A DNA stretch of 64,000 bases from an uncultured Planctomycetales bacterium. GTDB lineage: Bacteria > Omnitrophota > Gorgyraeia > Aquiviventales > Aquiviventaceae. Shown piece by piece: positions 1 to 64,000 of this stretch (its first letter is position 1; each line of letters opens with the position of its first letter). The notes beneath the pieces were generated by a model, which had not been told where the DNA came from, did not search any database, and saw only the letters and a program-made list of their open reading frames with translations. Where the stretch lies: positions 40,402 to 104,401 of the forward strand of contig CAYJTP010000002.1 in the NCBI GenBank assembly GCA_964373175.1. The letters run 5' to 3'. Position numbers and translations under genes: made by a program.

Positions 1-20
1 CGGAGTTCGGAACAGCATTT

Positions 21-12000: not shown

Positions 12001-15000
12001 GCGACTCAGAAGCCCAAGTCCAGCGAGCCACCCTTGACTACTTTAAGACCAGACGAGACATCCTCGTCGCGACGCGCCGGGTTCTCGATGCGAACAATCC
12101 AAACCTCATCACCGGACAGGAGTGGCTTTCCCAGCTCGACGAGCTCGAGCGAACGCTCCAGCTTCAGGATGGTGTCTTGGTCTTCAGCTTGGAGGGAGTC
12201 CTGGTGCCCTACACCCCGCAGCGCAAAGCTCGACTGGTTGACAGTCCTGTCTATCCAGAATTCATGGCGCTCCTCCGCAACGGGTTCCGGATCGTGGTCA
12301 ATGCGGGACACAGCCTTGAGAACGTGCTCCCTCAGATTCTGGATGGCCTGCCCGAGGCTGATAAACCGCTGCTGAGGAACCTGACCATCTATTTCAACCG
12401 CGGCACGGCGAAAGTGACGTTCAGGTCCTCTGGTGAACCAATCTTCGTTGAGTCCTATGCAAAGACGCTCTCGGATACCGACATCCCTAGGCTGCACAAT
12501 ATTCTCACAGAGCGCGTCAACGAGTATTGGAACTGGGTCCTGGAGGATCGTGATCGGTTCGAGCGGATGTTCCCGCGGTTCAGGCTCACCGATCCGCCGA
12601 GTCCGCCGAGGACTGAGTATCGTACATGGCAACCCTCTGCGTCGCAAGACCAAAACATGGGATTGTACAAAATGATGTTGTACCAATGGGGGTTGAAAGC
12701 AATGCCCTCTATTCCCCACGTGACACAAATCACGATTCTCCCATTCCCGTCCATAGAACTCGAAGGCGTTCCGGGAGCGACCGATTGGAGAAAAGCGTTC
12801 TTAACGCGTCTCCTCGAGGACCTCAAGGCTCAGGCTCCGGACTTATTGGAGCGTTACGATTTTATCCCTGGCGGGATCTATTCCATTGATATCGTCCGGA
12901 AAGGGGTGGGTAAAGATACACCGCTCAAAGAGGCCACGGCAGGTGTTGATCCTGGACATGTCCTGGTGGTCGCGAACACGGATCTGCATGGAGAAGGGGA
13001 AGGGGATTTGCCCTTGGGAACCCTTTCCTATCTCCAGCCCTACTCCGTGGGGGACATCAGCGATCTCCCGAAGGGATTCCGCACAGCTGGAATGGGGCTC
13101 TTTGCGACAAAACAGCTTATGCGCGAGGTCCTCAAAAACTATGACTATGCGAAGGCCCATCCGGAGCGTCCACCAACGAATGCGATCGGCACGGTGAAAG
13201 AATTCCTCCGCAAGCGACAACAGGCGATTTATGACATGTCGTGGTCCCCGACGATTGAAGGAGCGGTCCAGCAGTTCAACGCGTGGAGGAACCAACAGGC
13301 GACCCAAGGGAAGTCACCGAGCCGGGAGGACCAAGAAGACTATGTTCGGGGACTCTTTCAGACCTATCAACTCAATCGACTGAAGGGGTCGCCCTGGACG
13401 GACCTTTACGCACGAACACTTGCAGAACGCATGCACGCACAGACAGCCATCCGCACCCTCTTAAAAGAGCTCACCGCGGTCGATAAAGCGGAGCAATTCT
13501 ATGCACTGGTCGACGCAATTGACCAGCGCATGGGACTACGGAACGAACTGAGCAGCCAAGATTTCTGGGAGTACTACAAAGCAGTCGATCCCCGTGTGAT
13601 CCTAGCCCTCCGACGCCTCAAACAGATCACCGGATACGATGAGCATCGGCTTCGGGACGAGGTGATTCGCGAGGTCGCAGCATCTGAGAGGTCTCTGGGG
13701 CATGCGTTGAGTGTGCCACGGGTTTTGGTGAGCTACGCGGGTGATCGGATGGTCTTTCCGGCGATCAAAGCAAGCCCTCACAAGCCGCATGTATCTCCGA
13801 GCCAATACATGTATGTCGGTGGCGGGGGACCGGCGGCATCGTTCCTCATCCAAGGATGGATCCATCAAGCTCGCCAACGTGGAGAGCTGGCTCCAAACGA
13901 GCACGTGACAGATGTCACACTCGATCGCACCAAGCTGGGGCCTGCGGTCATGACGGTGGCCACGATCACGACCACCTTTGATGATGGGGGAGACTCGAGG
14001 AATTTCCTGCTTGGCTTTCTCGAAACCCCTCCCTATGAGACCTACTTCCTCCCGCCGGGAGACATCTCCGTCATGCTGGGCTTTGCGACGGATGATCCTG
14101 CGAAGCTCTGGTTTCTGCACTATGCCGACAAGAAAGAAGGACGGATCAGCGGTCGTGCAATTGCTCCGATCTGGCTCAAACGCCTCAAGATGATTCATGA
14201 AAAAATTGAGAATGGCCTATTGCCCCGTCCACCGGATTGGCTGGCCTTCGTCAACGCCGCGATGACGCTGGGTGATCTGTTGGATCGCGAGCTGGTGGAG
14301 CGGAACGTGGTGCATCCATCTCGATCGGAAGCGCCTCCAGCTCAAGCACGAGGGAGGGAGCTTCTGTTCAAAGACGGCAGCAGCCAGAATTTCTTCACGG
14401 AGGCTGCTGCGGGCTTAGACACCGGGGCGCTGATCCCTGGCGATGAACACCTGATCCGCGGGTTGTTCGATCCCTCGCGCTTGGATATCGACCATCTCAA
14501 GACTCTGCTGGGCATCCGCGATGCCCACGTCTACCCGGTGAGCCCCGATGAAGCTACGCTCGTGGCCCTTGATGAACAGGGCCACACGGTGGATCAAGAC
14601 ATGCACGTGACCCTTGGGGGCCGTATCTATCCAGTCCACCCTGCCGAGGAACAGACCGGCATTAGTGACAAGGCGCATGTTGGACGAATCCACCAGGTCA
14701 TCTTTCGAAAGCGGGTACCTAAAAAAGAGGAGAAAACGAACGTCATTTCTTATTCCTATCGCCAATTGAGACCTGAAGAGATACCAAAAGCGACCAAGGA
14801 GGAACTAGAGGGTATTGCGCGAGTTCTACAGGTGATTGTCTCCGGGCTGGGGAGTTCCTTCACGAGCATTCTTCCTGACCTGATGGTCCAAGGGGTGGTG
14901 GAGGCGATCATGGAGCGGCAAGACATCCCCCGCATCTATGTCGCCAAGATCAAGAAAGACCTCGAGACCTCCCAGCTTGATGTAATCGGGAAGACCTTGC

Positions 15001-18000
15001 GGGCGATCCCGCTCCGTGAGCAAATCGCCGTGATGGAACGATCCCTCGAAGGCGCACTGGGCAAGCCGGTCCGGTTTGAGCGGCTCTTCAGCCATGTAGT
15101 CCTTCCCCGTCTTTCGCAGAAAACCATTGACCGGCTGGCTGAGCTGGACAAGCTCACGGACCTTGAGGTCGAAAAGCTGCTCGAAGGGGGACCCCAGATC
15201 AGCAAGTATGTTCGAGGAGCCCAACTCATCAGCCAGGAAGACCTCGAGTTCCTCCAATCCCGCGGGATTCAAATTGTCTGGGTTGACGAATCGGACATTG
15301 AACTGCTCGGTGAGAAGAGGCGAGATGCGTGGTATCTGGGACTCGCCTTGAAGGCGTTACAGACAAAGACACCTCTCGAAAATGAGGATCAGCTGCTCTC
15401 CGTAGCCGACAAGACGAAAATTGTCGTTGAACACTCGACAGGTCAGGTCTTCGTGGATGGGAAAGAAGTGACCAAGGCACTTGGGGACCGAAAGGTTACC
15501 GAAGCAGCTCAGGTGGTTTCTCGCCACCCGAAGGTCCGTCACTACGTCAATCAACACTTGTTGGCTGAGGGAACGCTCACGGAGATTGAAGCGTTGGTCG
15601 ACCACATGGACCAGAAACCTCCCTACTATAAGACGCAGCCCCTCCTCAGGACGATCGATGAGATTGTCGCGTCGTACAGACCTTCCCAGCAGGCTGATAT
15701 CATCACGATTGACGGCCCTGCGGGAACCGGCAAGAGCACGGTAGCGCGCAAACTCGCTAAGCGCTTGGGTTGGCGCTACCTCGATAGCGGGGCGCTGTAT
15801 CGAGCGCTCACCCTCAAGGCGTTGGAGGAAAAGATTAAGTTGGATGATGAGATAGGGCTGTCCGACCTGGCCTGGGAAACCCAGATTGAACTCTCCGGAG
15901 ATCAGGTCTTGTTGGATGGAAAGGACGTGACAAAGGCGATTCGGAGTCAACAGGTGACCAGGGCCGTCTCGCTGGTTGCGCAACATCCAGGGGTCCGGCA
16001 ATACATCACCTGGCTGCAGCGCCGCCTGGCCAGGTCGGGAAAGACGATCTTAGAGGGCCGAGATACCGGAACCGTGGTGATGCCGGGAGCGATGCATAAG
16101 GTCTATCTCGATGCGCCGCTCAACGTACGTGCCGAGCGGCGTCAACAGGAACTCGCTTCCCGAAAGATCACGTCCAGGCTCGAGAAGGTCCGTCAGGGCA
16201 TCGAGAAGCGCGATCAGCGTGATCAGGGACGCGCGATCGCGCCACTGCGTCCTGCGCCAGGGGCCCACCTCATTGACACGGATCAGATGACCAGTGACCA
16301 GGTGGTTGACCAGATTCTCGCTGGAAAAGGAGCCGCCTACGGAGCCCTCCTGATCGATGCTGATGTGACCCTGCTACGCTCGGCCGATAAGACAGAGACG
16401 TTGAGCACCAGCCCGGCCCGAGACGCCTTGCTCAAGGTGCTTCAGCAGGGGGTGCGCGTGGCGATCATGACAGGCAACAGTGCGACACAAGCCCTGGCCC
16501 GCCTGATCGAGACCCCCGCACAGGGAGAGCAGCCAGCTCTCGTCCACATCCCACCGGAACTTCGTCACCTGGTCACTGTATACGCCAACGGGGGCTTACA
16601 GAAATTCACCTTTGACCAGGCTGGCGTTCCGCACGAAGAGGAAGCGTACCGGTCGGGGAAAGAGATTCCAGCGACCGATCGACAACGGATCCTTAAATCC
16701 ATCCAGCCGCTGCTAGACTGGTATCGCAACCGCGTTCAGAGTCTGGGTGGGCGGTTTATTAACGCACAACCCGACTTCCTCCTCCAAGGCAGAACCCTTA
16801 GGATTCCTGAGATCGTTCTCGAAGGAGAAACATCGGGTGAAGGGGTGCTGAAAATTGCCCTGATGTTCCTTTCCGCTCATCGGGCCATGGAGCTGAAAGA
16901 CTCCAAAGCCCCTGAGACCTTTCCGGATCTCCGGCAGGAGTTCCTTGAGAAGCTGTTGGCCATGCTGCCAGATGACCTGAAGGGCCGCTACAGCTTTAGC
17001 GAAGGTGGTCTCAGCAGCATCGATATCAAGCGCAAGGGGCTGGATAAATTGGTGGATGTCCGAGACTACTTGACCTCAACCAACCTTGCGCCTGAAGATG
17101 CCATCTACTTCGGAGATGAAGTCTATCCGGGAGGAAACGACTACCCTGTGACGACGATTCCAGGGCTGTTGGTGATTGGAGTCAATCCCGATCAGTCGAC
17201 CGTCGCAACTCCCGCCATCCCGGGTGGCGCAGGTGTCATGGGGACCACGTGGTGGTTAGAGAACCTTGATCAGTTGATTACCTTTCATCCCACGAGGAAG
17301 AAGTTGGTCAATCACCCGATCGCGCCCACGCCGATTCAACACCTACGTCTCCAAGCACAAGGACCGTGGCGGGAGCGAGAGACGTCGGCAGGCGTCGCCC
17401 GCGAACTCCTCACCTCTGTGGATGGGGGTCGTCTCATCGCCACGACCTATTCGCTCACTGAGCACTCAGCGCGCGATCAGGAGGCGCCTCAAGTCGCAAA
17501 AGGCCCCAACCAACTTGCGAGAAATGTGCTGGTGGATGGGGTCGTATTTCCCCTGGTCAATGACCAAGGCTGGACTCTTGATACCGCGTTAGCCCAGGAC
17601 CTGACCTCAGAGCAGCAGCCGCTCCTCCATCCAGCTGAGGCGGCCAAGGGTGCTCCCGGGACACGCTTCATCCTCAATCTCCTTTACTACCTCACGGTGC
17701 GGCTGTATGAACGGTATAACCAACTCCGGAAAGATCGACCGGCCGAGCAGCTGACTCGCCAAAACTTCTATCTCGATCACTACAAACCCTTGCACGGTGA
17801 GGAACGGTTCCCCTTGTACAACAAGGGCTATGTTGGCATCGGTAAGGACGGTAAGCTCATCTTCGGCCAGCGAACGCTCCTTGGAGGCAAGCTCTGGTTC
17901 GGTTCGCGGGAGCTGTCCTGGACCGAGCGAGATATCAACCCCACTGCTTGGAGCTTAGCCGGTCATCCGGTCATCGTTTACACGCCGAGTTACGCCGATG

Positions 18001-21000
18001 CCGCTTCGTCTTTCACTTCGCAGGTCACCGGCAAGCCCGGTGATCCCAATTTCAGCGTCACTGTCGGGCGAGCACGGTACAACCTCCTCGTCATCGATAA
18101 CCGCATCGAAGCGGTGATCCACGGGGAGGTATTCCTGCCCTATGTGGGGGTGGTGCTCTCGGTTGATCAAGCGACCTTCGATCGGGTGTTCCGTGATCAG
18201 GTGGAGCAGGTGGATGTTCAAGGGGAACGCCGCGAGGTCTACCGCCCACGCGTCAGCTATCGCTTCCAGCTCGATCCGCCGAAAGCGTTTGAAGGTGATT
18301 GGAGCCACGTGCAGTGGCTGATGGGAGGCGGGTACCTGTTGGTCGCGCACGGCGAGAACCTCGTGGCCACACCAGAAAAGACGCAGGAGAGCCTGAGAGC
18401 TCAGGGCTGGCTCAACCCACTGTCACGCCAGTCACTGGAAACGCCACTGGACGTGCGTGGTCCTGAGCAACGAGATCCTACCGTGGTGATCGGCCAGACG
18501 AAAGATGGGCAACTGTTCGTGGTCACCTTCAGCGGACGGACCATCCACAGCAGCGGCGTGACCTTCCCTGAGGCCGTGCGCATTCTTGAGGAAGAGTTTG
18601 GCGCTGGGAATCTCGAGTGGGTCTTGAATCTCGATAGCGGATCCTCAGTGTCCTTGGGTGCGGTGGATGAAGAGGGTCGCTACCATCTCCTGAATTATCC
18701 TGGACCAGGTCCTGATACCTTGGCGGGAGAGGTGAGGCCGGTCAATAGTCTCGGGTTCATCACGACCCGCCAAGTTCCCAGACGTCTTGGGCAACTTCAG
18801 ACACTCGCCCATACCGCCGCGCCCTTCCAGCCCATTACGGAATGGAACCAGACATTTGAGAAGTTCAGGCCTGGCGATCCCGGGACCGACACAGTCACCG
18901 TCGGGCTTGATCTGGGTTCAGGGAGAGGCCGACACCTCTTCCAGATCACGGTGCCGAGAACCGACGATCCTCCCGTCCAAGCCGCGATCATCCGCTACCT
19001 GGCGATCCAGATCTATAACCGCTTGGGAACGTTTGGTCCTGAGCGGGTGTTGATCGATGCGCCTGAGGCGCTCTACAACCAACTTGTCGCCTTCTTAGCG
19101 CAAGGCGGCTCAGCGACCTCGTTTGGACGCATCCAGGCGTATCTAGCCCTAGTGAACCAGAAGCCGTTTACCATCCTGCCAGCCGATCGCACGACCATCG
19201 AGGCGCTCCCGGCTGAGCCTGTCGGTCTGGCTGTGCCGGATATCAATCCGCGCCGAGGCCAGGTCGTAGCGATTGACATCGGAGGGACCGATGTCAAAGT
19301 GGTCGCCATGCAGGACGGTGTAGTGGTCTATCAGCACACAGCAAACTGGGTTCCCGAGCAGTTCACCGACCCTGAGCAACACGTTGAACTCCTTGAGCGT
19401 TTGATCCGACAGGCCCAAGCAGAGGGCAAGCTCCCAGCATTGGATGCCATTGGCATCAGCTGGAACTCAGCTGTGCGCGACGGCCGCATTGCGGCTTCCA
19501 CCAAGGCGACCAAGGGATTGACCGAGGAGCAGTTCCGCAACGTGATCAGTCCGATCCGCGAGCGCTTTGAACGCGACTTCAAGATTCCTGTGGCTATCGC
19601 GAATGACGGGGATGCTGGGGCGCTGTGGGCAGCGGTAGAGCTTGGCGTGAACAATGCGCTGGCCCTCAGCATGGGAACCAACCTCGCCTCTGGCTATGTG
19701 GACCCCCAGGGGGACCTTGCTCCCTACTTGACCGAGATGACCAACGTCATCATCGACCTTGGGACAGAAGCCGCTCCCCATTCCTTTACGAAGGTCCCAG
19801 GGGTCTCGCAGCAATACCTGTCTCAACAACCTGCGTTCCGCTTGGCGCGTCAAGCTGGCATCAGCCTCGATGCGATGGCGCATGACGCGGCTCGGTTAGA
19901 GTACGTGCAATCGCTCCTTGACCAGAACGACCCACAGGCCGTTTCGATTTTCAAACAGATCGGTCGATACTTAGCGACGCACATCGCAGAGACCCAGCAG
20001 TACCTTGGAATGACCAACGTCATCCTCTTTGGTCGTGTGGTGCGCGGTCGTGCTGGTAACCTGATTGTGGAGGAAGCCCAACGCGTCCTGCGGGACATGG
20101 ACCCGGTCCTGGCTGATGCGGTGACCATCCGCCTTGCGACCGAGGTCCACTATGGGCAGGCGATCGGGGCAGGGTATCTGGCCAGTCGCCATTTCCAGCA
20201 GCTTAATTCCACTGATGAAGTCGAGATTGCCCGTCGGCGATTCGATGAACGGTGGGTAGCAGCTCAACAAAAACAGGCGCGTGGATTTACAGCCGAGGAT
20301 GTGCACAACGCCTACTACGATGCGCAAAGCAAGCAGTGGAAGTCAATCTACGGAATCAGCCCCGTCGTCTGGATAGACCCAGGCCTTATGAAACAAGTCC
20401 AGAGCGCGTTGAAGGCTAAACTCTCACCAGCGCTTCAATCAAAGCTTGTCTGGTTCACTCCATCCACGAGCCACGTCACCATCGCTTACCTTGGGCTTTG
20501 GAGAACGACGCCCCTCGATAAGGAAACAGTTCAAACGTATCAAGCGCTGTCCGACCAAATCATTCCAAAACTCATTCGGAGACCCCTCAGCTTTTCAGCA
20601 GAAGGCGTTGGTATGATGCTAAACGGCGCCCTGTTTGTTCCCATGATTCCCACTGAGGGATCGCTCGCGATCCTCGACCAGGTGGACGCACGCTATCTTG
20701 AAGAGGTTCCTGGTCTCGAACATTTCCCGAGCGTCGTTCCCCATGTAACGCTTGCGTATCTTGTTAGCGAATTAACCCCAGAAGAGATGCAACAGCTACT
20801 CAAGGCCATCGAAGAGCTTCGGGGAATCCAATGGGGAGCCTATCGGGCTGACGAGATCGTGCTCTATGCTTACGATGACTTGTCGCTTGAACGTGGGCGC
20901 GTGTTGAACCGGTACGATCTGACGGCGCCCGCGAGCCAAGCCAAATCCCCAGCGCCGATGGCGATCCTGACGGGTCTCTTGGCTGGACTGTGGCTGGGCC

Positions 21001-24000
21001 TAACTCAGGGCGCTGGGACTGATCTTCCAGCCTGGGCCGACGTAGTCCTGGGTGGCGGTGCCGCGTTCTTCGGACTCTGGACCCTCATAGAGATCGGGAG
21101 ATACATTCGCGGCAAGATCAAGGCTAGCAAGCTAACCGACGAGCAGCTTGAAGCCAACTTCAGGGCATTGGTGGAAACGACCCTCAGCGAAGACTGGGTC
21201 AAGGCGCTTTGCGATAACTGTCTGAAGTCTGCGACCGACCTTCCGGCTCGCCAGAAACTCAAGCCCCTCCAGTCCGCCAAACGGATTGGGACGAACGTCT
21301 ATCTTGATCTGCGACTTGCGGCTTCACCAAAAGAATTCTCTCGGGTAGTCCGCCACGAGTTGACGCATCTCAAGAGCCATCCGGCTCACGCTCCCCCACG
21401 TCTCCTTGGGACCGTCTGGTACTACAGCGTTGGGTACCTCCTCCGAGAGCTCAAAGCCCACCTGGCCGAATTCCGCTGGCCCCATCCTGCCAAGCCTCCT
21501 CAATCAAATCCTCGTACTCTCAGAGCCACTGAGCAATATGCTCGCCTGCCCCAAGAAGATTTTATTAGCCCAAACGAGAAAGCGCTTCCTCACATCGCGG
21601 ATGGCAATGCCCTTGAGCGGTTCGAGCAAGCCCTGAATGCGCCCGGGGCTTTTGAGCGTTTAGGAGTTCCACTTGGTCTCGCCTCGGCCATTGCTCACCG
21701 ACTCCTCACCCGAAGCGAGCAACGCTTGCGCTGGCTATTGGGACAATGGGCGTCATTACCACCGGCCAGGATTTATGAAGTGTTCAAAGACGATCTGCTG
21801 CGGGGTGAGGAAGGGTTGCGGACGTGGATGGATGACCCGGATCCAACCACCGTGGTTGGGGTTGAACGAATCATCCAGAACGTTCTGGAAAGTCAGCCCG
21901 AGGTGATGCGGCGAGGTTTCTTCCTCAAATATAGCACGGCTGAGCGACTCATCCGGCAACACCCGCCAGTTCGGATGATTCAAGAGGTGCTGCAGGACCT
22001 TTCGCCTGAGGCACGGACTGTGGATGAGCTCCTGCGTCGAGTAGATTCCTTGACCGTCAGTAGCGCGGCGCGGTTTAGCGAAGAGCAAGCCTGGCGCGAG
22101 CGCTTTGCGACATTGCTGAACGAGCTGGCGCCTGACGATTTTGAGCACCGCGGTCTGCGGGTTGTCGTTCTTGATCCAAAGGTGTGGGGGAAGGTGGCCG
22201 ACCATCTTCGAGAAGACAAAGCCTACATTCACTACGGCAAACTGGTGGGGATCCTCTTGGGCACTCCTCTGCAGGAGCGTCATCCGTATGCCATTCTTCG
22301 AGGTGTGTTGAAGGTGCTCAGCTACATCAAAGAGGTTGAGCTGTTCAACCGGATGTGGGAAGTCGCGAGCGAGCAGAGCCGCCACGCCCCTGGTTCATTT
22401 GGGCCTCGCATTCGGAAGGCGTTCGCCGGGTATCCGTTATCGGATCAGCCGACGCTCGGACTTGTACTGGAAGGCGCCACACAGCGCTACGTTCACCAGC
22501 AATTGTGGAAACTGGCGCAAGAGATTCCCGCCTTGACCGCCTTGGCCCAAACGTATGACACCTTGCATATGGCGAACCAGGAAGCCGTTAGCCTGAACGC
22601 CTGGACCCATGTCTCTCAAGCCGTCCGAGGACTGCAGCAACCGTTGCTGCGAGAAGCCCGGCAGATCGTCCTCTACAACTTTTTCGCGAAATTCTTAGGT
22701 TCTGATCACCAGCTCGATCAGTGGATTGTCGAGCACACGGGGGTTGATGAGACGCTGCCGACCACCACGACCGTGAAGGCAGTTCCCAACTACCCCTTGA
22801 CCGCCTCGACTGTGAGCGGCTGGCAAATGCCTCTTGTTCACCCCTCGCGCCAGGGGGCGATGACCATTGATCTTGACCCTGATGTCCCGGTTCCTGATGC
22901 CGGAACGCAACTACTGATCCAAGCGGTTGATACGTGGCTGCGACGGCAGGGGCCGAAGGCCAAAGACGCCTCGCTGCTTGGGATCGCGGCCATGGCTGGG
23001 ACGGTCCCCAAACTGTTTGCCGACGACGTCTCGCGAGTCGTCGTGATCGCACGCAACCCCTACGCCATGGCGCTGACCCGAAAGAACTCGGCTGACAAAC
23101 CTAACGTGACCGTTCTGGTTGGAAACCTCTTTGAGGCGCTGAGAAGCGTTGACCCCGCGACTCGACAGGAGCGGCGAGAGCAGTTCGACTTGATCGTCGG
23201 GCAGGTCCCTACTGTTCCGACGCCTGTTGATATCCCCATCGATCCCAGCGATCCTGCAGTCCTGTCCTACGAAGGGGGAGGGAAAGGCCGGGAGGTGTTG
23301 GACCGGCTGATCCAGGAAGCCTCCCAGTATCTCAAGCCGGGTGGAACGCTCTTGCTTGTCCAGCCCGAGTACGTCGATGCGGGAAAAGGAGAACACGCTA
23401 TCGAGTTGCTCAAGCAACAGGGTTTCTCCGCCCGCGTCATCCAGAGGGTAGGTACAGAGATTGTTGAGGGATCGTTGCTCTCCAGCCGCCTGGAATGGAT
23501 TCAGCAAGAGTTGGCTTATACGTTTGAGCGAGTCCGACAACCATGGTGGCGAAACGTGCTGTCTCGCTTTCTAGGTGGCCCTCGACCTCACGCGCCGTAC
23601 CTCAATCGCCTCATAGTGATTGAGGCCACCAAACCTTCCCAAGCTGGGTCTCTCACAGATAGGGCAGGGGGATTGCCCATCTTTATGCAATCTGGGTCAT
23701 ACCCACCGTTGCTCCTTGGTGCTGGAAGCATCGGGGGCATTGGGGCGTCAGGTTTCTTCCACGAACCTGTCCTTGCGCTCCTCGGTCTTGGCTTAGACCT
23801 GTTGGGTGGGTTGGTGGCGCTTTTCTGGCCGATCCTCTTTGCGATGACCCTACGAGACGAGAAGACTGAGCAGTTACCCGAGGCCGCGCGGGCGGCTTTT
23901 GCAGAAGCGCTGGACGCGATCGATGTCACGTCCGGCTTGGGCTTGGAGCGGCTGGCGTCGAAGATCCAGACCGAACCGCTGGATGAGATGCTGCGGCGCC

Positions 24001-45000: not shown

Positions 45001-48000
45001 ACATGTACTACAACACGGGCCTGACCAGATTTCTGCTCGGCCAGCTTGAGCAGGACTCAGGTCGAGCCAAGCCCGCCCACGAGTACTACGAACGCTCCAT
45101 CGCGGATTTTGACACCTCGATTGCCCTCAAGCCAACCTTGGAAGCGTATTACCATCGGGGCCTGGCGTTCTACAACGTGCAGCAGGAAGAGAACGCCATT
45201 GAGGATTTCAAGCAGGCCCTGGCCTTTGAGGAGGCCTCCAGGCTTCCTCCGGGATCGCAGGCAGAGCTCCTGCGTGCCTTAAGCGCCGCGTACGTGGCTC
45301 ATCGCGACTACCAGGCGGCCCTCCTCTACAGCCACCAGTCGCTTGCCCTCAAGCCAACGTTGGAGGGTTATTACTACCGAGGGCTGGCGTTCTACGGTCT
45401 TGGCCAAGAAAGCGATGCACGGGCTGACGAGGCTGTCGATTCGGTTGAGCAAGACGCGGCGTTGCAGGAGGCCTATCAGTCTTATCTGGATGCTGCCGTG
45501 GATCTTGAGGAGGCGCTGGCCTCGGAGGAATTCTCGTTGTTAAGCCCGCGCACGCAAGCTGAGCTGCATCGAGCCCTTGGCGCGACCTCTTTTGCGCTTG
45601 CCGAGTATGGTGAGGCGATCAAGCAGTATGACGAAGCGCTTCGTCTTGATCCTGACAACGCTGAGCTGTACATCAGACGTGCTGAGAGTTATGCCCTTTC
45701 CGGATCGACGTGGTTTGCCATCCAGGATTTCAAGGAAGCGATTAAGCGAGGCGCAGAGCAAGCGGTCAAGGCCTCCCTCGCTAAACTCCGCAGGCTCGGG
45801 ATCGAGATTATCATCCCGATGATCCTCGCGCCGGTGGTCGGCCTCCTCGCCTGGGCGGCGCACCTGTTTGGGCTTGGTGGCGCGGAGCAGACGGCAGGGT
45901 TTGTGCTCAGCATGGCGATACCGATGAGCGTGCCAATCGCGAACGCGATTCGCGCAAGGTGGATCGATGTGCTTCCCGATCATGTGCGTTTTGGCAAGGG
46001 ACCGATTATTGACCAAGCCATTCGCGCGGCGTTCGCTCATGCGATCCAAAATCCTGAGCAAGATGCCGAAGGCGCCATTGTTGACACTGCACAAGCGCTC
46101 GCGGAGGACTTATTACCACCAGGCGCACAGGACAGCTACACCGCGCTCATCCAGCGCGCGCAACACCTGACAAGCGATCCAAGGAAGCTCGTGGTTCTCC
46201 TGCGACAGCCGCTTCTTGAGGCACAAGAGCTTAAGCTCCAGTTCACAAATGGCCGCGATCAGTCCATGCGCTTTTTTTATCGCTTTGATCTCAAAGAGCT
46301 AATTGGACAGCGGAGGAATGGAGATCGGCATCCCCAGAAGAAGCCGATGGGACCAGCAGCCACGGCCAAAGCGGAGCAAATCGCCGTCGCGCTCTGGGAA
46401 CTTCGCGATGAGGTCAAAGCTGGTTTGCTGGATTTTCCACGGTTTAGAAAGTACTTGGTCGTGCATGAACTGCGCAAACGCAAAGGCCAGCAGTTTCTCT
46501 CTCCTTGGACATTAAGTGTTTATCCCCGGCACTCCCAAGCCGTCCAAGAGGCCTTACGAGAGCTGAAGCGTGCGATCGAGGAGCGCCAGGAGCAAAAACG
46601 CCAAGCGGGGCAACTCGTCTACGACTACGTCCACGCGGAGCGGGCTGCCAAAGTGATTGATGAACAGCTCACGCAACTTGAGCAACAACTCGATCGTGGA
46701 GAAAAGCCACGCTACAAAGTCTCAGAGGAAACATTCTCCGGACACATCGATCTCTCCCGCCAAACGCTGGCCAAGCACCTCACGTGGAATCCGGTGTTTC
46801 GTACAAGGTTTGAGTCTTTGCAAGAGAAGACAAAGGATTTCCGCGATTACCTCTCGAAGGTCCTTCAGCGTCTCGCTTCGGAATATCCCGGCCGCTGGTG
46901 GACAGTCAAGAAAATCCGCCAACACGCCCAGATGACTGAGGTCGCTCACGATAAGACGTATCATGATTTGGAGCAGCTTGCCAAAGATCCGTCCTCAGGT
47001 GTGAAAAAGGAACCCAGAGCGAGCCGCAGTCCCTATAAACCCAATCGCTATCGCTTCGTCTCTCAAGGCACAGTCGTCCTTGCGATCCTCCTGCCGCTCC
47101 TCGGCGGCCTGGCCTATCCTCTGCACCTGATTGCGGGGGCAGGCGATGCGTTGCTCAGTGCGGTGTTGCTTGGTGGATTTGCTGGTTTTCTCGGTGTGAC
47201 TGTCTCACTCAAGCAACTGTCGGCGATTTTGCGAGACACCCTGAGAGAAGGATCAGACAAGCTCGTCACCCTCTACTGGTTAGCGAAAACTGAACTGGCC
47301 CTGGGCCATCTCGAGGAAGCCTATACCCGGTCCGCCTCCGGATTGGCCCAGGCCGTTGTCGCCCAGCAAACACTCAAGCTCACTGGTCGGGAACGCGAGG
47401 GTGAGCTGGCAGAGCTGGACAGACAGATCGCTGATCTGGTCGATCTCCACGCCAAGGTCCTCTTGAAACGAAGACACCACGACGATGTGGATCGCGCGAT
47501 CGCCATCTTATCCCAGGCGGTGAAGGACCACCCCGAGGCCTTCTTCCTCCGGATCACCCTCGCGAAGGCCTACGAAACCAAGACCAACACCCCAGGTCTC
47601 CACGAGAGCGACCGCCGCTTTGCCTTGAAGCAAGCGGAGGCGACAATCCGCAAGGCCGTTAAGGACCTCTCGACGTCCCCACAGTATTCCAGGATCGCTG
47701 AATCTTACGCGAACCTCCCCGCCTGGCAGGACCGAATTGATGAGGCGATTCACGTGCTGAGTGCCGGTGGGCGCCATGTGAAACGGCAGTTTCGAGGAAA
47801 TCGGTTGATCCAGCAATTGTTCTCTCACCTCGTCAGGCTTCGGGATGGCACACGGCGTTCGGGTAAGGCCGAGACAATCCTCAAGCTTGCCGTCGGATTC
47901 CTCAGCCTCAGACTCCTTGATTTGACCGTGCAAGCCCTCAGCCACGGTGCCTCTAAGAACATGGTATCTGATACCATTTCCCAGGCGACTCTCTTCAGGC

Positions 48001-51000
48001 TTGACACCCCTGACATCAACCTGACGCTTCTTGGGCTTCTCCTCACCGGGGCCGTGGTCCTCTGGTCGCTCTATCATTGGCTTGCCACGCGCTTCCATGC
48101 GCCGCCAGAAGCCGCTCCATTGAGTCGCTGGAGCGTCCCCGCCTCTGATCGATTTGCCCTCCTTAGTGGTGTGGTCAGCTTGCCGATGATGGCCACATTG
48201 CTGCCCTCCAAAGATCCTGACAGCAAGTTGGCTCGGGATGCAGAGGATTTACGTGAACAAGGCTGGACGGCTGAGCTCGTTCGGAGCGATCTGACCACGC
48301 AGCAGCTTCAGCACACCATGGACGCCATCTTGGATGGATTAGTGTTTTCCCCACATGATCGGCCGCTCGGCCTTCCGGCCTGGCTTGGTGAACAAGGGAT
48401 CGCCGACTCCTCGAGCCGCTTACCTCGAGCATGGGTCGAGATGGTCATTGGCGAGTTGCTCTGGAATTGGCAGAGGCAGCCTGCCAGTAGTCCGTCCTCA
48501 GGCGTCGCCAGACCTCTCTTGGTCGCCTACCGACGAGGCCACATCGTGAGCGAAGAGACCATCGAGCTCATCGCGCGAAACCTTGTGGAGGAGATCCCGA
48601 ACATCCGCGAGGCGGTGAGGCCTACTGAGGCTCAGCCTGTGACGGAACGCGGCCAATGGCTTCAGCGCATGATCGCCATCGTGGTGGGGATGTTGGATGG
48701 GGAGGTGGTCATTCGATCGCATGGCAAAAAGTCTCACTTCTTCCTGCCGCAAGGAGGCGTGGGCAGTTACACCCAGCTGCTCGAGGCGAGCACGTCCTTT
48801 GACTCCTATGTGACCAAGGGCACCTCCATCTCCATCAGAATCCCGACCGCCGCGTGGTCGGCAGATGCATCGGGGCGAGCGCTCAGACAGGGCAAGCGGC
48901 TCATGAGGAAGCGACGGTTTGCCGAGGCTGCCGCGGTCTTTGCCAACGTCCTGAACCGAACGCCAACGCACCTGGGTGCACTCCACTGGTTGGCGAAAGC
49001 CGAACTCATGCAAGGGCATCTTATAGCGGCTTTGGCGCGGCCGCTGTACGGAATCGCCCAGGCCATGATGAGCCGCTCGACCCTGCACACAGAAGATCAT
49101 GTGCACGAGCTTGCGAAGCTGGATGCCCAGACTGCTGATCTGGTGGATACCTACGCTCGTGTGCTCATGGCGCGACGGCATCCTGGCGAGGTGGATCGCG
49201 CTATCGCCGTCTTAACGGCGGCGGTCCAGGAGCAGCCGCACGCGTTCTTCCTGCGGATTACCCTGGCCAAGGCCTACGAAGCCAAAGCCGTCATCCCCGA
49301 CCTCCATGAAAACGAGCGACGCTTTGCCTTGAAGCAAGCCGTCGCCATCACCCAGCAAGCGCTTGCGGACTTCTCCGCGCATCCGAAAGTCCGCCTGATC
49401 GCAGCGTACGACGCCGGGCTGTTGTCCCGCCAGGGCCGCATCGAGGAGGCCATCCGCGTGCTCAGCGATGATGAGGGACGCCACGTGAAGCGGGAGTTCC
49501 ACGAGGATCAAGTCATCCGTCGGCTCTTGGACAAACTGGCGGCAAGCCGCTTGGCTGTTGGGGTGACACCGTGGGCGCTCTCGCAAGCCCCGGCGGAGCT
49601 CTTCTGGTCGGTGGTAGCACTCGGGGCGATCGGGCGCGTGGTGTTCTCGCTGCGGCGGTGGCTCGCGGAACGCTTCCACCGCGCACCGCAACCCGATACC
49701 GAGGCGCAGAAGTTGCTTGAGGAGGCGCGATCACGACATCAGAAGAGAGACTTTGCCGGCGCCGCCCACGGGTATCGGGAGTTTGGTCATCACCTCAAAG
49801 TGCGGGACGGTCTGGCGAAGACGGAACTTGAACGCGGTCATGACTTGGATGCGATCGCGCTCGCCAGAGAGACCCTCGCGTTGGAGCAGCGACTTCTCGA
49901 GACGGAGCACTATCTCGAGCGGGTGTTAGCGGCTGAGCAGATGCCGTTCACCCTGGAGGTCTTGATCGATGCGCTCATCGCGCAGAGGAACCATGCCGAA
50001 GCGCTCACGGTCGCTTCCAACGGCATTCGCGATTTTCCGGACAACCCGCGTCTTCGCGTGAAGCAGGTGAAGGTGTACTACAGTGCCAACGACTACGAGC
50101 TGGGAATCGCCATCGCGCGCGAGGCCCTTCAAGACCCCACGTTCGAGGAGAATCCGCATCTTCACGAAGTGCTCGCGGCTGGGCTGCGGCACCTCAAGCG
50201 GGCGAAGGAAGCCAAGCACGTCATGAGTTTTGATGGCCGCACCCTCAAACCGTGGCTGCGTGGCCATAAATCCGTCTATCCCACCTTTGCTGCCATCCTG
50301 GGCGCCGATGGCCACCCGTGGGAGGGGATTGACCAGTTGATGATCAATCGGCAGGTCATCAAGCGCGAGCTTCGCGACCACCCGGCTGTCTACCCGACCC
50401 TGGCAACCCTGTGGGGTCGCGTGGGTCAGTTTGACACGGGGATTGCGCTGCTGAGCCCGGATGGTGGCCGCACAGTCCAACCAAAACTCAGCGACCATCC
50501 GGCTTCGTGGACCGCACTCGTGGAGTTACTGGAGCATAGCGGGCGGCACGCTGACGCCCTGACCCTTGCGCGCGAAGCCAAGAAGAAGTTTCCAAGAAAT
50601 CCCGTTGTCCGTCGCACGCTGCAGCACATCGAGGCCTCCTTTTACCGCCCGGGTGGTCGGGGAAGACCAGACCTCCCGATCATCAGCGCCTGGCTGGTTG
50701 TCCTAGGGCTTGGATGGTTCCTGGACCGATTCCTGGATGTGGGGACCTCATTCTCAGAAGCTGCGGTGTTTGGAGATCTCTTCTGGCCAGCGCTGGTTCT
50801 CCTCGGGGTAGTCGCAGCGGCGTACCAGCATCGAGCGCTCAGTCCTCGAACCGCTCGTCGGCTCCGTGAGGCCATCGCCTATTTCAATCAGCAAATCAGA
50901 AACAAAGTCTTACGACTAAGACAACTCACCGAAGCGGATGTTGCCGGAAAGGCCGATGTGAGCCATACGACCATCTATTGGGCCCTCAAGATCACTGACC

Positions 51001-54000
51001 CGTCGCAACAAGACATCAAGCGAGGGCTCATCCGACTGTTGAAGTCGGAACGCGCGACCATACCTCCATCCTGGCCGGGATCCCCTGAGACCCGCAGGGA
51101 GCAACTGGTCGGGCAGATCCTGAGCGCCATCCAGGATCTCACGCGACTTGCCGGTGAAGGAAAGATTCAGCGTTACTCGACGGCTGAACTCGTGGCAGCT
51201 CATGTCAGGAAGATGACCGGTGATCAGACAATTTCCGACCATGAAGTCCGGCAATTGATCGCGCATCGCAAGAACCTCCAAGATGCCATGGGGGTCTTGC
51301 GGAAGAGCACGGAGTCCTTCCACTTCCAGCCAAAGCCGCGTCCGAAGAAGACACCCGGATCGAATCCGCTCAGGGTATTCGCCGCCCCGCTGCTCGTGGC
51401 CATCGGCCTGTGGGTCGGTGGGCTCGAAGGGCACTTGCTGGCCGGGCTGGGCGTTGTGCTCAGCGTGATCGGGTTTGGCGGGCTGCTGCTGGCAATGCGA
51501 CCGGTCAGACAAGAAACAGAATCAGAACTCAAGCCAGGCGAGATTGCGGGAGGCGTCCAGCAGGAGCTTGGCGCGGTCCAAGCATCCAGCCCATCCAAGA
51601 ATCAAGGGGACCTGGTCAGTCTTGACCAACATCGCCCACAGCGGCAGGGGTGGCGAGGTATGCTTGGCATCCAGCAGTTTTCCAGTCACCTTCGCCAAGA
51701 CCGCGTCAATCTCGGCGTCTTTCCCTGGGACGAGGCCACGCAGCGGCAGTTCGCCCAGTCGTTCAGCACGCAACGCGGGCCACAACGAGATGGGGATCAC
51801 CGAGTAGGGAGCGCCCGTATCGATGATGGCCAGATGGTCATCACTCCACCCAACAGACTGTCTGAACTGGACTCGACCCAAGAGTCGAGACAGGAAGAGT
51901 CGACGACGACGGCGGCTGGCCTCGAGGTCCCGCACGCGCTGGACCTCAAGGGCGACGCGCATATACGTGGATTCCGGCCTCGAGGAACAAATGCGGGATA
52001 TGCGGCCAGTCAAGCTGCTGGCGAGCTTTCGCGAGCACCCGGATTAGATGCGGACCAACAGCCAACACTCGCCGGTGCGCAAAGGCGACCCATTGATTCG
52101 GGTAGCGTGTGGCCAATTCGGCATAGTGCGCAAAGGCCCAATCGTACTCCCGCTGAAGAGCCTCTGGAAAGAGCGCTGTTTGAACCGACATCAGTTTCAC
52201 CGACCTCCACCTCGACTATAACCGACGATGAAGAGGCTGTCAAGCCAGACCGCTTCTCCGACCTTATCGGTGGGCTCGAAGGGCACTTGCTGGCAGGGCT
52301 GGGGTTTGTGCTGAGCCTCGTCGGGTTTGGCGGACTGCTGGCGATGCGGAAGATTGGCGGAAAGGAACAGCTAACAGGCAAGGCAAGAAGCGCGAATAGG
52401 CAGAAGACAAGCCGTCAAGGAATGCCGAGTTTTTCTTCCACAACTTTCAAGCGGGCGTCGAAAGTCTTCATCTCGGATCTGATCGCACGGATTTCAACAA
52501 GGATCAGGTCGGCGTCTTTCCGAAGGTTGCCGACGTCTTTCGACAAATTATCCACCTTTGTGCGAAGGTCAACGAGCCCTTCAGCGACGAGGCGGATCTC
52601 ATGGCGAAGCGACTCGATGAGCGCGCCGACTTCGGTCACCGTGAAGGCGTCTTTGGAAGGCCGTTTGGATGGAGGCATGAACGCCATTCTACGCAGGACA
52701 GGAGCACCAGTCAAGGAACATCGGGATGACTCGGTTGCGCCAGGTGGCCTCCTGACCCCGATGGGGGGATTCGTGCTCATAGGGATCGGGCTCCTGGCCA
52801 AGCATCTGATGGGGCTTGCGCTCTTCGGGACGGTGGCGGAAGTGGTGGGCGTTGGGCTGACCGCGCTGTGGGCAGGTTGGAATACGACTCTTCATTCAGC
52901 GTCTCAGGTACTGTCGTGGAGGGTGAGAGCGCTACCGAAAGATCTCATAGCCATCACTGCGCAGCACGAGGACTTTTCCACGCAACCACCGCTCAGGTCT
53001 GATCTTCAACAAGTTCCTGACAGCCTGGGTGATCGTTTCAGCCATGGGTGGGTGGATGCGGATCACGACAATTCCGGACAGCTTCGAGGGCAGGAAATTC
53101 AGGAAGTCCCGGTCACGCGTGAACAGGATCGCGCCTTCCCGTTCGGCAAGCGCAGCGATGGTCGCGTCGGTCGCACGGGGGGACGGACGGATGACGTGAT
53201 GCCCCACCCGGCGCAGGAAGGCTTCCGTCTGTCCAGGGATATGTTCGTCAAGCAGCACACGCACAGCGAGCTACGCCTTGAAGGCCACGAATTCCCGGTG
53301 CTTGAATTGCTCAGCGGCGTACTGCAGGGCGGCGCGAATGTGCTGCGGGGTCAGCTGGGGAAAATATTTCTTGGACGTGATCTCGGTGCTCGAAACCCCG
53401 GCTCCAAGCAGCTCAAGGACATCCGAAACCAGGATGCGAGTCCGCCCAAAGCAGGGTTGGCCATGACAGATGGCTGGGTCCACGTCGATCAGCTTCTCAA
53501 GGGAGTTTTTCATCGCCACCTTCACACTCCTCCTAAGAAGGATAGCATCCTCGCTCCTCGTCGTCAAGGCACGTCTTCTGGAGTACTCAACGTGGGGTTC
53601 AGCGCAGAGACCCTTGCCGGGCGGTGGCCGGAGGGTTCGCCCATCTGGATCGCGCCGGTGGTGGGGCTGCTCGGGTGGGAGTTCCTCGTGGCGGGGTTGA
53701 AGATGGGCGGCCTAGAGGGGGTGGCGCTCGCGGGCTTTGGATTGGCACTTGGCCTCTTCGGGTTTGGCGGGCTGCTGCTGGCGACGCAACGCGGTGGGAG
53801 AGTAAAGGGGAGGGAAGCACGGCTTAGAAGCTACCGGGTTCCCAAAGAGGTGGCCGAGCGTTATGTCACTCCGGAGATCCTGACACTCTTCGAAGTGGCT
53901 GAACAACTTGGACTCAAGATCAAAGCAACCGGCGGGACCGCGCGGGATTTTGCCGTGTCTGTCATGACACAACACCCGCTTCGACTCCCTCGCATCACCA

Positions 54001-63065: not shown

Positions 63066-63113
63066 AGACATGAGGCACAGGAGACCAGACACAACAAATG
63101 GGTAGTAAAAAGA

Positions 63114-63169
63114 GGGGTCAGACCCTGTGCGGGAATTTTGTCAGTTTTCGTGCGAAGGGTCTGACCCTG
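63114..63169. repeat. REP-like palindromic element ~50 nt after the giant ORF stop
   Basis: The arms gggtcagaccc (63115-63125) and gggtctgaccc (63158-63168) form a stem of about 12 bp with a ~30-nt loop. No U-tract follows. It is the same family as 36423-36480, in the opposite orientation. Confidence 0.75.
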
Positions 63170-63253
63170 AGCACGCTCACGGCAGGGGAACAGGGAAAGA
63201 GGGGACTGTCAAGAGTCTTCCAGGGCTCTCTTAGTACAAGATAAAAAAAGCAC

Positions 63254-63282
63254 TTGACAAGCTTTTTGAAAGATATTATTAT
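63254..63282 (+). promoter_or_regulatory. Sigma70-like promoter for the downstream gene
   Basis: TTGACA (63254-63259), a 17-nt spacer, then TATTAT (63277-63282), within an AT-rich patch. Confidence 0.55.
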
Positions 63283-63360
63283 ATGGCATCCTTTTCCTAT
63301 GTCTCGCTTGTGTCTAGGCTAACCACGGTGAGAGCTGATGGCTGTAAGAGGCCTGAAGTG

Positions 63361-64000
63361 ATGGGGAAGTCGAAGACAGGACGGCTTGGCATCTGGGCTG
63401 TCGTGTTCTTCTGCAGCGTGTTCCAGATCAGCCTAGCGGGTTCTAAAGTCGAGGCGGCTCAGACGTCCCAGGGTCTTCTGGACGCTTCCGATCTCGCCAT
63501 CCCCGAAGATCTTGGTTACGTGGTCGAAACTCATCGGCCAACCCCTTCCACCTCGTCCCATCCTGCCCTTGTTATCCACATCCAAGAAGCGCACACCAAC
63601 TACGAAGGCCAGCAGCACCTCGCGGGGATTCTCGAGCATCTCATCAAGCAGTACGGGCTTCGACTGATCCTCGTGGAAGGGGGGCAGGGGGATGTGGGCC
63701 TGTCCTACCTGCGCAGCTACGGTCCCCCAGAGACTCGCAAACAGGTCGCTGGCAAATACCTGAAAGCCGGCATCCTGAGCGGGGAGGAGTACTTGGATAT
63801 GGTCTCCGACTATCCGCTCATTCTCTGGGGGGTGGAGCAGCAGGATCTCTACCAGCAAAACGTCGAGGCGTTCCTGAAAGCCGAGGAAGTCCGGGATTCC
63901 CTGAAGCCCCTAGTCGCTTCGGTGAGGGAGGCGATCGAGCTCGTCAAACCCAAGGTGCAGGACCCCGCCCTGCAGGAGCTGGACACCAAGGGCCAGGCGT
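63361..64000 (+). CDS. Secreted hypothetical protein (3'-truncated by the window edge)
   Basis: The ATG at 63361 is preceded by AAGAGG 9 nt upstream. My hand translation is stop-free to nt 64000. The N-terminal 'MGKSKTGRLGIWAVVFFCSVFQISLAGSKVEAAQ' looks like a Sec signal peptide. This ORF is absent from the ORF track, presumably because no stop falls within the window. Confidence 0.65.
   Translation, partial: MGKSKTGRLGIWAVVFFCSVFQISLAGSKVEAAQTSQGLLDASDLAIPEDLGYVVETHRPTPSTSSHPALVIHIQEAHTNYEGQQHLAGILEHLIKQYGLRLILVEGGQGDVGLSYLRSYGPPETRKQVAGKYLKAGILSGEEYLDMVSDYPLILWGVEQQDLYQQNVEAFLKAEEVRDSLKPLVASVREAIELVKPKVQDPALQELDTKGQA

Follow-up and report, generated by a model that had tools for sequence, protein, structure and literature searches.

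What becomes of the catalytic sites of enzymes when these are strung together as modules of a single, very long reading frame? The question is raised by a stretch of 64,000 nucleotides (nt) from an uncultured Planctomycetales bacterium, placed by GTDB within Omnitrophota (assembly GCA_964373175.1, contig CAYJTP010000002.1, positions 40,402 to 104,401), which we call the window. A preliminary description of this window, made by a model from the letters and their open reading frames, had listed a series of enzyme-like modules, some with substituted catalytic motifs and others apparently intact, and had read them as a mix of pseudoenzymes and enzymes that arose from captured gene copies. What it did not point out is that all of these modules are parts of one giant open reading frame (ORF). 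We find that conserved and degenerate catalytic sites do coexist in this ORF, but the states of the modules, as judged from their aligned motifs, form a gradient, from a fully conserved cytidylate kinase (Cmk) to modules of which apparently the fold alone is left, and not a two-way split.

One reading frame

The ORF is open at the 5' end of the window and at least 21,014 codons long if one begins at nt 21, where the first in-frame TTG stands; the gene truly starts upstream, and only its last 63 kb are in the window. There are no in-frame stops, against 291 to 917 in each of the five other frames, and the guanine-plus-cytosine (GC) content of the three codon positions (GC1/GC2/GC3, about 0.65/0.42/0.67) is uniform along the whole ORF; it is therefore one selected coding sequence, and not a row of separate genes. 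Every string quoted in the preliminary description was found in this one frame and where it had been placed. The span given there for the whole set, ending at 53990, does contain most of the modules, but the NFD string, the GT4 glycosyltransferase, HAD-3 and the hydrolase lie beyond it (nt 54000-59990).

About 25 enzyme-, signalling- and repeat-derived modules can be recognised, making up about 27% of the ORF; about 73% has no recognisable family. Some 20 distinct Pfam families tile it and none is dominant (the largest repeat set consists of five helix-turn-helix (HTH) units): CofD, Cytidylate_kin, Hydrolase_3/PMM, NAGPA, ROK, 2_5_RNA_ligase2, three S-adenosylmethionine (SAM)-methyltransferase domains, HATPase_c_2, two receiver domains, the HTH repeats, the N and C domains of acyl-CoA dehydrogenase (ACAD), TAL_FSA, TPRs, GT4 and Hydrolase_4. 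About 36 hydrophobic, transmembrane-like segments are interspersed throughout the available protein in a Kyte-Doolittle hydropathy scan, the N-terminus being outside the window. Only Cmk scores above its curated NCBIfam cut-off (242 bits for a cut-off of 135.6). The transaldolase-like (TAL) module reaches 192 bits of 367, GT4 99 of 302, the HemK-like module 58-65 of 162, ACAD 93 of 640, the YvcK-like module 43 of 196 and ROK 19 of 260. Pfam, searched up to E 5, gave nothing for the HAD-1, HAD-3, phosphoesterase-, Udk- and CCA-like regions.

Catalytic sites along the chain

At one end of the gradient, Cmk, GT4 and the alpha/beta-hydrolase had been called intact, and their motifs do align to solved structures. 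Cmk has all of its motifs (GPAGTGKST, DSGALYR, GRDTGTV and RDxRDxxR), that is, the P-loop, the nucleoside monophosphate-binding motif and the lid Arg/Asp residues of a cytidylate kinase, in addition to a score over the family cut-off. It matches 40 of the 41 columns that are at least 90% conserved among 114 free-standing Cmks, and its similarity to these is 44.9%, compared with 42.9% among themselves. We think that this module is apparently a competent (d)CMP kinase, as far as aligned residues can predict. GT4 keeps R..KG, EX7E (EALGLVALE) and the downstream Glu, with EALGLVALE and RIDPEKG aligning to PimB', and thereby both the EX7E motif and the R/K contacts to the nucleotide sugar. In the hydrolase the triad is in place when aligned to 6qe2 (Ser in HGTSLGA, Asp in GRGDHV, His in GGH). 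The motifs of HAD-2 are canonical (DADVT, TGNS, K and GDxxxxGGND), and the 2H phosphoesterase-like module carries both HxT motifs, HVTIAY and HVTLAY, read directly from the sequence. The statement that several methyltransferase folds lack GxGxG was too strong: two are canonical, a third (MTase 18307) reads GAGKN, and the HemK-like module alone lacks the motif.

Two modules that had also been described as intact stand further along the gradient. TAL keeps the Schiff-base Lys (DIKIPAT, compared with MIKVPAT in 7bbx and 3clm), the Asp, TxNP and NxT, but its catalytic Glu (SxEV) is replaced by Gln, SLEVSP reading SIQVSP; SRVD reads RMID, with the Arg displaced, there are two insertions, and the family score stays below the cut-off. 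In transaldolases the Glu of SxEV is the catalytic acid/base; fructose-6-phosphate aldolases (FSA) typically have a Gln there, and use a Tyr. TAL gives partial matches to FSA models, and has neither the compensating Tyr of these aldolases nor the phosphate Arg. In ACAD the catalytic-base motif YEGTNEIQ is kept at aa 13838 (amino-acid position in the frame), IYEGTNEIQ aligning to IYEGTSEVQ, and with it the catalytic Glu; but QLHGGYGY reads QMAHSLNA (GGYGY to HSLNA), which removes the Q-x2-G-G-x-G motif, AGSD reads AGSH, and the middle domain is broken by an insertion of about 70 aa. A ROK-like module, absent from the preliminary list, is in a similar state: DIGGT and the catalytic Asp of ND are kept, and the ExGH and CxCGxxGC zinc/sugar motif is gone.

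At the other end, HAD-1 and the HemK-like module, both described as substituted, are firmly assigned and indeed degenerate. HAD-1 reads FSLEGV at motif I (SLEG at aa 4056, nt 12186-12197), with Ser for the nucleophile Asp and Glu for Asp+2; in the pairwise alignment with its paralogue HAD-2 (E 6e-12) SLEGV faces DADVT, and motif IV is degenerate as well. The DxDxT motif with nucleophile Asp that characterises HAD phosphatases is therefore missing. In the HemK-like module the family similarity is real (NCBIfam E 6e-18), even though all NCBIfam matches are under their cut-offs (65 bits for a cut-off of 162) and Pfam gives a weak MTS match only. Motif I reads LGIAAMAGT, the Asp of motif II is Ala (motifs I and II from the alignment to PDB structures) and NPPY of motif IV reads QVPT (aa 7728), so that neither GxGxG nor NPPY is left.

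Three further regions described as substituted do have degenerate motifs, but their family assignment is weak. In the phosphoesterase-like region (ApaH E 0.0039) GDxHG reads SKLQG (VSKLQG at aa 10525), GDxxDRG reads GDVIGRG and GNHE reads GANE (aa 10587), so that four metal/acid residues are lost and the metal-binding motifs of metallophosphoesterases are degenerate; the best PDB match, the metallophosphoesterase 3qfm, is non-significant (E 0.54) and aligns SDIHG with SKLQG and LGDI with LGDV. In the Udk-like region (kinase E 1.8e-4) the Walker A GPSAGRKNT (aa 14674) aligns to GPAGSGKST when compared by hhalign with the 114 Cmk sequences (P 1.3e-4); the Lys is kept, the Gly before it is Arg and the Mg-binding Ser/Thr is Asn. 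In the CCA-like region GGTARD is kept and is followed by NFD (aa 17994, nt 54000) in place of DxD; the PcnB match (E 0.019) lies about 120 residues downstream, which is the expected spacing. Another NFD, at aa 14992, was ruled out as the CCA motif, being in TPR repeats. Sequence searches of the PDB returned nothing significant for these three regions, and single-sequence AlphaFold2 models had a confidence (pLDDT) of 37 for the phosphoesterase-like and 45 for the CCA-like region, the latter giving only noise in Foldseek. In a shuffle control the motif arrangement of the phosphoesterase-like region appeared in 0 of 2000 shuffles and that of the CCA-like head in 0.5% of them; these significances are overstated, because the patterns were post hoc, written after the strings had been seen. 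As for HAD-3, the quoted LDWGGT is indeed present (aa 19408), with Gly for Asp+2, but the nucleophile Asp is kept, neither Pfam nor NCBIfam has a match, and hhalign with the HAD modules gives P 0.038 over motif II only, in a region overlapped by a weak AAA_33 match. HAD-3 is therefore neither an established HAD nor clearly dead.

Table 1. Position and assignment of the giant ORF and of its modules in the window.
Feature	Position (nt)	Strand	Basis of assignment
Giant ORF	3..63065	+	Frame 3; open at 5' end of window; stop 63063-63065
HAD-1, putative pseudo-HAD	12168..13025	+	Paralogue of HAD-2, blastp E 6e-12; no Pfam or NCBIfam match
YvcK/CofD-like	13791..15005	+	Pfam CofD 3e-13; motifs VGGGGP, FDDGGDS, GLGSSFTS
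Cmk fragment	15327..15551	+	Pfam Cytidylate_kin profile positions 32-106, 5e-9; decayed partial copy of Cmk insert region
Cmk	15702..16319	+	Pfam 2e-77; TIGR00017 242 bits, cut-off 135.6; PDB 3r8c 2.5e-44
HAD-2, HAD-IIB/PMM-like	16341..17210	+	Pfam Hydrolase_3 1.4e-5; alignments to alpha-phosphoglucomutase and PMM structures in PDB
ROK-like	19227..20186	+	Pfam ROK 2e-8
2H phosphoesterase-like	20472..20876	+	Pfam 2_5_RNA_ligase2 E 0.001
HemK/PrmC-like, putative pseudo-methyltransferase	22863..23456	+	NCBIfam PRK14968 6e-18, HemK2/MTQ2 4e-14, PrmC 1.4e-7
SAM-methyltransferase, DYGTGTG	28362..28751	+	Pfam Methyltransf_23 6e-12; canonical motif I
SAM-methyltransferase, DWGCGNG	30369..30671	+	Pfam Methyltransf_25 3.5e-20; canonical motif I
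Metallophosphoesterase-like	31578..31820	+	Weak: NCBIfam ApaH E 0.0039, YfcE-type phosphodiesterase E 0.076, both over motifs I-II
ACAD-like	40338..41576	+	Pfam matches to N and C domains only; alignment to PDB 5ol2
TAL (transaldolase-like)	42840..43940	+	Pfam TAL_FSA 2.4e-34; alignments to PDB 7bbx and 3clm
P-loop kinase-like (Udk/PRK-like)	44013..44510	+	NCBIfam PRK07667 kinase E 1.8e-4
CCA-adding/poly(A) polymerase-like	53868..54515	+	Weak: NCBIfam PcnB over aa 18091-18161, E 0.019
SAM-methyltransferase (MTase 18307)	54888..55220	+	Pfam Methyltransf_11 1.5e-12; motif I partly altered, DVGAGKN
GT4 glycosyltransferase	56970..58040	+	Pfam Glycos_transf_1 2e-33, Glyco_transf_4 5e-11; alignment to PimB' in PDB
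HAD-3	58218..58610	+	HAD resemblance at motif level only
Alpha/beta-hydrolase	59229..59990	+	Pfam Hydrolase_4 4e-12; alignment to PDB 6qe2

Some repeats within the chain deserve mention beside these modules. Five tandem HTH_23-like units of about 67 aa each, 42-53% identical to each other, occupy 37131-38120 and are flanked by hydrophobic segments. A block of about 280 aa without assigned family is duplicated within 47220-50300 (aa 15734-16030 and 16304-16557, 44-50% identity), and a third copy, less similar, lies at aa 16598-16760. Finally, the hydrophobic motif EGHLLAGLG.VLS.IGFGGLL recurs three times, at nt 51435, 52287 and 53721 (aa 17139, 17423 and 17901), and suggests repeated units that may serve as transmembrane anchors.

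Relatives, neighbouring loci and the history of the gene

An exhaustive HMMER search with aa 4800-5999 of the giant ORF gave, beyond ordinary Cmks, two long proteins, P0003 (MEW6009527.1, 3860 aa) and P0055 (MCK4859124.1, 4533 aa). Both are labelled Candidatus Omnitrophota, both are fragments of giant genes limited by their contigs, and they match the giant ORF over more than 1000 residues (1e-78 and 5e-75, respectively). The GC content is 58% in the giant ORF and 37-39% in these relatives (37% in P0055). No giant relatives came from word-index searches, whether the query was aa 4001-5200, aa 5200-6960 or the alignment of the giant ORF and P0055; genome and metagenome contigs gave no match when scanned with the C-terminal 400 aa or with an alignment (A1), and no relative close enough for the ratio of nonsynonymous to synonymous substitutions (dN/dS) turned up in these word-index and contig searches. 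The stretch best conserved with P0003 (17259-18125, aa 5747-6035; 37% identity over 300 aa) has no assigned family and sits between HAD-2 and the NAGPA-like module.

The comparison with these relatives bears on the history of three modules. P0055 has a counterpart of the block formed by HAD-1 and the YvcK-like module, at 26-33% identity (33% for the YvcK/CofD-like module), followed by an intact HAD. Its counterpart of HAD-1 reads FGGPDGV and is likewise without nucleophile, at about 26% identity to the copy in the giant ORF. Since the two share this loss across a very deep split (GC 37% versus 58%), the nucleophile-less HAD-1 should be old, and the module retained since then, which in turn points to a binding or structural role for a domain that is predicted to be dead. 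The earlier suggestion that non-catalytic modules are retained thus fits HAD-1. For ROK, the ExGH/CxCGxxGC motif is lost also in P0003 and kept in P0055, according to the alignment.

The third module is Cmk itself. Just upstream of it lies a fragment, not listed in the preliminary description, which is 45% identical to Cmk aa 5258-5330 (blastp), is without the P-loop and the C-terminal half, and has lost two Arg (YR to YL, IR to LG). From the block of HAD-1 and the YvcK-like module to the intact HAD that comes next, the giant ORF has 340 aa (aa 5101-5440, the fragment and the full Cmk) and P0055 has 40 residues, and Cmk-like sequence was found in neither P0055 nor P0003. Because this Omnitrophota relative is without the block, it looks like a lineage-specific in-frame gain of Cmk with a decayed partial duplicate, and the notion of captured gene copies, proposed earlier for the modules in general, fits here. 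A recent foreign origin is not supported: GC3 of the insertion equals the mean of the ORF, and identity to free-standing Cmks is about 45-50%.

The end of the gene opens another comparison. After the stop, the remaining part of the window (63066-64000) contains an inverted repeat (about 63114-63165), a sigma-70-like promoter (TTGACA-17-TATTAT, 63254-63282) and, starting at 63361, a gene with a signal peptide and no Pfam family. This downstream gene was the only query that yielded related loci in the contig scans: homologues with 51-53% identity are present in two Planctomycetales-labelled metagenome-assembled genomes (MAGs; loci L001 and L002), and the full-length homologue of L001 has a sub-threshold match to ChaN/Tiki (E 0.007), the only match obtained. 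In both loci the gene is preceded by a giant ORF, poor in cysteine (Cys), that runs off the locus (L001 1-9864; L002 2-9061). These two ORFs share almost no sequence with the ORF of the window or with each other (one short match each), and since syntenic giant ORFs are almost dissimilar, giant-gene content would turn over very rapidly at a conserved locus. The labels of the two sets of relatives differ, the homologous giant fragments being Omnitrophota and the syntenic neighbours Planctomycetales. The downstream neighbours in L001 and L002 are ORFs of 1200-1650 aa that enclose domains of FBPase_3, GTP-PEPCK and class I fructose-bisphosphate aldolase (L001 11550-20152; L002 10799-14395), two to three times the usual length, and an architecture of enzyme plus extension seems common in this lineage.

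The giant protein itself has only 9 Cys in 21,014 aa (0.04%). The long ORFs of L001 and L002 are equally poor in Cys, including those with FBPase, PEPCK and aldolase domains (0/1675, 2/1237 and 0/1207), compared with 0.4-0.5% in the Omnitrophota relatives; Cys depletion thus looks like a trait of the whole lineage rather than one peculiar to the giant protein. We dropped avoidance of stop codons as its cause, Trp and Tyr being at ordinary levels and neighbouring ORFs of ordinary length being equally poor in Cys. Four of the nine Cys form two CxxC pairs, LCDNCL (aa 7064/7067; 21210-21221) and LCLSCI (aa 8869/8872; 26625-26636), and both pairs sit where no family is recognised.

Competing explanations and known systems

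We think it reasonably probable that this giant gene of a bacterium of the PVC (Planctomycetes, Verrucomicrobia, Chlamydiae) superphylum grew by in-frame insertion and duplication, and that its modules then met individual fates, including the decay of catalytic sites. The chain would have taken in gene-sized pieces, Cmk with its decayed half-copy being the clearest case. Some modules would have been retained as membrane-tethered catalysts, their competence being presumed from their motifs (Cmk, HAD-2, GT4, the alpha/beta-hydrolase, 2H and two methyltransferases); in TAL, ACAD and ROK the catalytic equipment would be incomplete; and a fold without its chemistry would be what remains of HAD-1 and the HemK-like module, and probably also of the phosphoesterase-, kinase- and CCA-like ones. 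The ORF, the states of the motifs, the homology to Omnitrophota giants and, against one relative, the Cmk insertion are observed directly; the mode of capture we infer, as we do catalytic competence and the roles of the dead modules. Proper alignments could have spoken against the preliminary reading by placing the catalytic residues elsewhere, and they did not. Several points nevertheless weigh against the scenario that we favour. A missing motif is only predicted inactivity, as catalytic residues can migrate within a fold; the phosphoesterase-, kinase- and CCA-like regions are assigned to their families on weak matches (E 0.004 to 0.02) and HAD-3 on none, and the structure models with low pLDDT (37 and 45) give no fold support. 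Whether Cmk was inserted or deleted is judged from two distant relatives, of which the second has a rearranged module order. Finally, the transmembrane segments are predictions of a hydropathy scan, and a single unprocessed polypeptide is a prediction from the reading frame.

These weak assignments invite the objection that several of the putative pseudoenzyme modules have no homology to the families whose names they bear, short strings having been matched to motif names by eye. Indeed, HAD-3 and the phosphoesterase-, Udk- and CCA-like regions have no Pfam match even at E 5, the PDB searches were non-significant and the structure models unusable. We take this objection seriously but hold it to be unlikely: independent weak matches are to the families that one would expect and lie where the motifs should be (ApaH, YfcE and 3qfm; PRK07667; PcnB), the multi-motif arrangements are rare in shuffles (with the post hoc limitation given above), and it cannot apply to HAD-1 and the HemK-like module. 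A different alternative, which the first description did not consider, follows from the geometry of the gene. As a stop codon or a frameshift would truncate everything downstream, a module that is no longer needed is barred from the usual course of pseudogenisation and can decay by substitution only, so that some dead modules may be in-frame fossils rather than binding or scaffold domains. If all of the degenerate modules were functionless fossils of this kind, drifting by substitution and in-frame indels while the frame is kept open for the parts downstream, one would readily understand that a Cmk half-copy adjoins the full Cmk, that most modules score far under their family cut-offs, that about 73% of the ORF belongs to no family that can be recognised, and that the syntenic giant ORFs of L001 and L002, almost unlike that of the window, imply very fast turnover. 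We find this improbable as a general explanation, as the dead HAD-1 and the neighbouring "linker" are still 26% identical to those of an Omnitrophota relative with a GC content of 37% (versus 58%), which indicates long-term constraint, and as the coding-type GC1/GC2/GC3 is uniform along the ORF.

One may also argue, in the opposite direction, that most of the substituted modules are still enzymes that use non-canonical or shifted residues (an FSA-like Gln in TAL, an Asp-x-Gly HAD, a variant Walker A). The change of Glu to Gln in TAL does mirror the Gln of fructose-6-phosphate aldolases (compare the partial matches to FSA models), HAD-3 keeps the nucleophile Asp, the Udk-like Walker A keeps its Lys and MTase 18307 keeps two of three Gly. 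But TAL is without the compensating Tyr and the phosphate Arg, HAD-1 has no nucleophile at all, motifs I, II and IV are all gone from the HemK-like module, and the phosphoesterase-like region is short of four metal/acid residues, which makes this hypothesis decidedly improbable in our opinion. More improbable still would be a polyprotein cleaved into separate enzymes, with module states that merely reflect ordinary divergence of paralogues among the released proteins. Processing has been proposed for Omnitrophota giants that bear a C39 peptidase (10.1101/2023.11.21.568195), but the Pfam and NCBIfam scans of the 21,014 aa in the window showed neither C39 nor any other domain of a dedicated protease, and hydrophobic segments are interspersed throughout the chain.

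If we return to growth by insertion and duplication followed by module-specific decay, a bolder extension of it can be formulated, to which we give a small chance only: giant membrane ORFs of this lineage could be in-frame collectors of housekeeping genes, with a fully conserved cmk expressed only within a polypeptide of more than 2 MDa, and with duplicated or superseded modules turning into conserved ligand-binding pseudoenzymes. Were this true, catalysts and metabolite sensors would form an array tethered to the membrane, and the chain would be a readable record of the change from enzyme to pseudoenzyme; other central enzymes might likewise be confined to the giant polypeptide. Whatever the fate of this idea, giant multi-enzyme genes of Omnitrophota and related PVC bacteria are annotated by counts of Pfam domains and on that basis interpreted as machines of metabolism or of cell-wall degradation, and here a domain match does not amount to an active enzyme: by sequence criteria a single one of about 25 modules qualifies as a true member of its family, several are without catalytic residues, and one dead module at least has been conserved between relatives that are very distant from each other. 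Should this be general, inferring the function of giants needs checks at the level of residues, and such proteins would offer a natural series of transitions from enzyme to pseudoenzyme inside a single reading frame.

By its predicted domain content, the giant ORF is of a kind already described, the multi-enzyme giant proteins of Omnitrophota type. Nielsen & Lui 2026 (10.64898/2026.06.07.730766) defined among the very long proteins of Omnitrophota a class 1, the "multi-enzyme metabolic cluster", with methyltransferase, HATPase, HAD, GT1, receiver and ROK as recurring families, about one transmembrane helix in several hundred residues, and proteins that are for the most part unique in sequence. 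Our ORF resembles them in its length (at least 10,000 aa), in its many Pfam families without a dominant one, in the recurring families themselves and in its few close relatives, and it is directly homologous to two Omnitrophota giant fragments; the transmembrane-like segments of the hydropathy scan may have a similar spacing. It differs in that its nearest genomic neighbours are Planctomycetales-labelled MAGs, that its GC content is 58% and not 37-39%, and that Cmk, TAL, ACAD and the HTH repeats are not among the class 1 families listed. The "Archaeovorin" giants of West-Roberts et al. 2023 (10.1101/2023.11.21.568195) have multiple transmembrane segments together with glycosyltransferase, methyltransferase, TPR, HAD and HATPase domains, and also embed domains of glycolytic enzymes. 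The giant ORF shares with them the multiple predicted transmembrane segments, the glycosyltransferase and methyltransferases (GT4 and at least three methyltransferase modules), TPR, HAD, HATPase, enzymes of central carbon metabolism and a predicted membrane anchor. Unlike them, the available 21,014 aa are without the NUDIX, C39 peptidase and SecA-like domains of Archaeovorins (the 5' end being outside the window); HEAT and lytic transglycosylase domains were likewise absent from the Pfam and NCBIfam scans of this part.

Heterogeneous catalytic integrity is unreported for such giants in the two preprints that describe them. Nielsen & Lui mention neither pseudoenzymes nor "active site", and use "catalytic" in names of domains and families only (10.64898/2026.06.07.730766); West-Roberts et al. 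mention neither pseudoenzymes nor "catalytic" (10.1101/2023.11.21.568195); and a full-text literature search found no paper linking giants of Omnitrophota type to pseudoenzymes. A general parallel to our observations is the concept of a pseudoenzyme paired with an active paralogue (reviewed in PMC10211241), to which HAD-1 with HAD-2 and the Cmk fragment with Cmk would correspond within the giant ORF. The likeness extends to the conservation of the dead copy in a distant relative; the difference is that here many unrelated enzyme families are affected within a single polypeptide.

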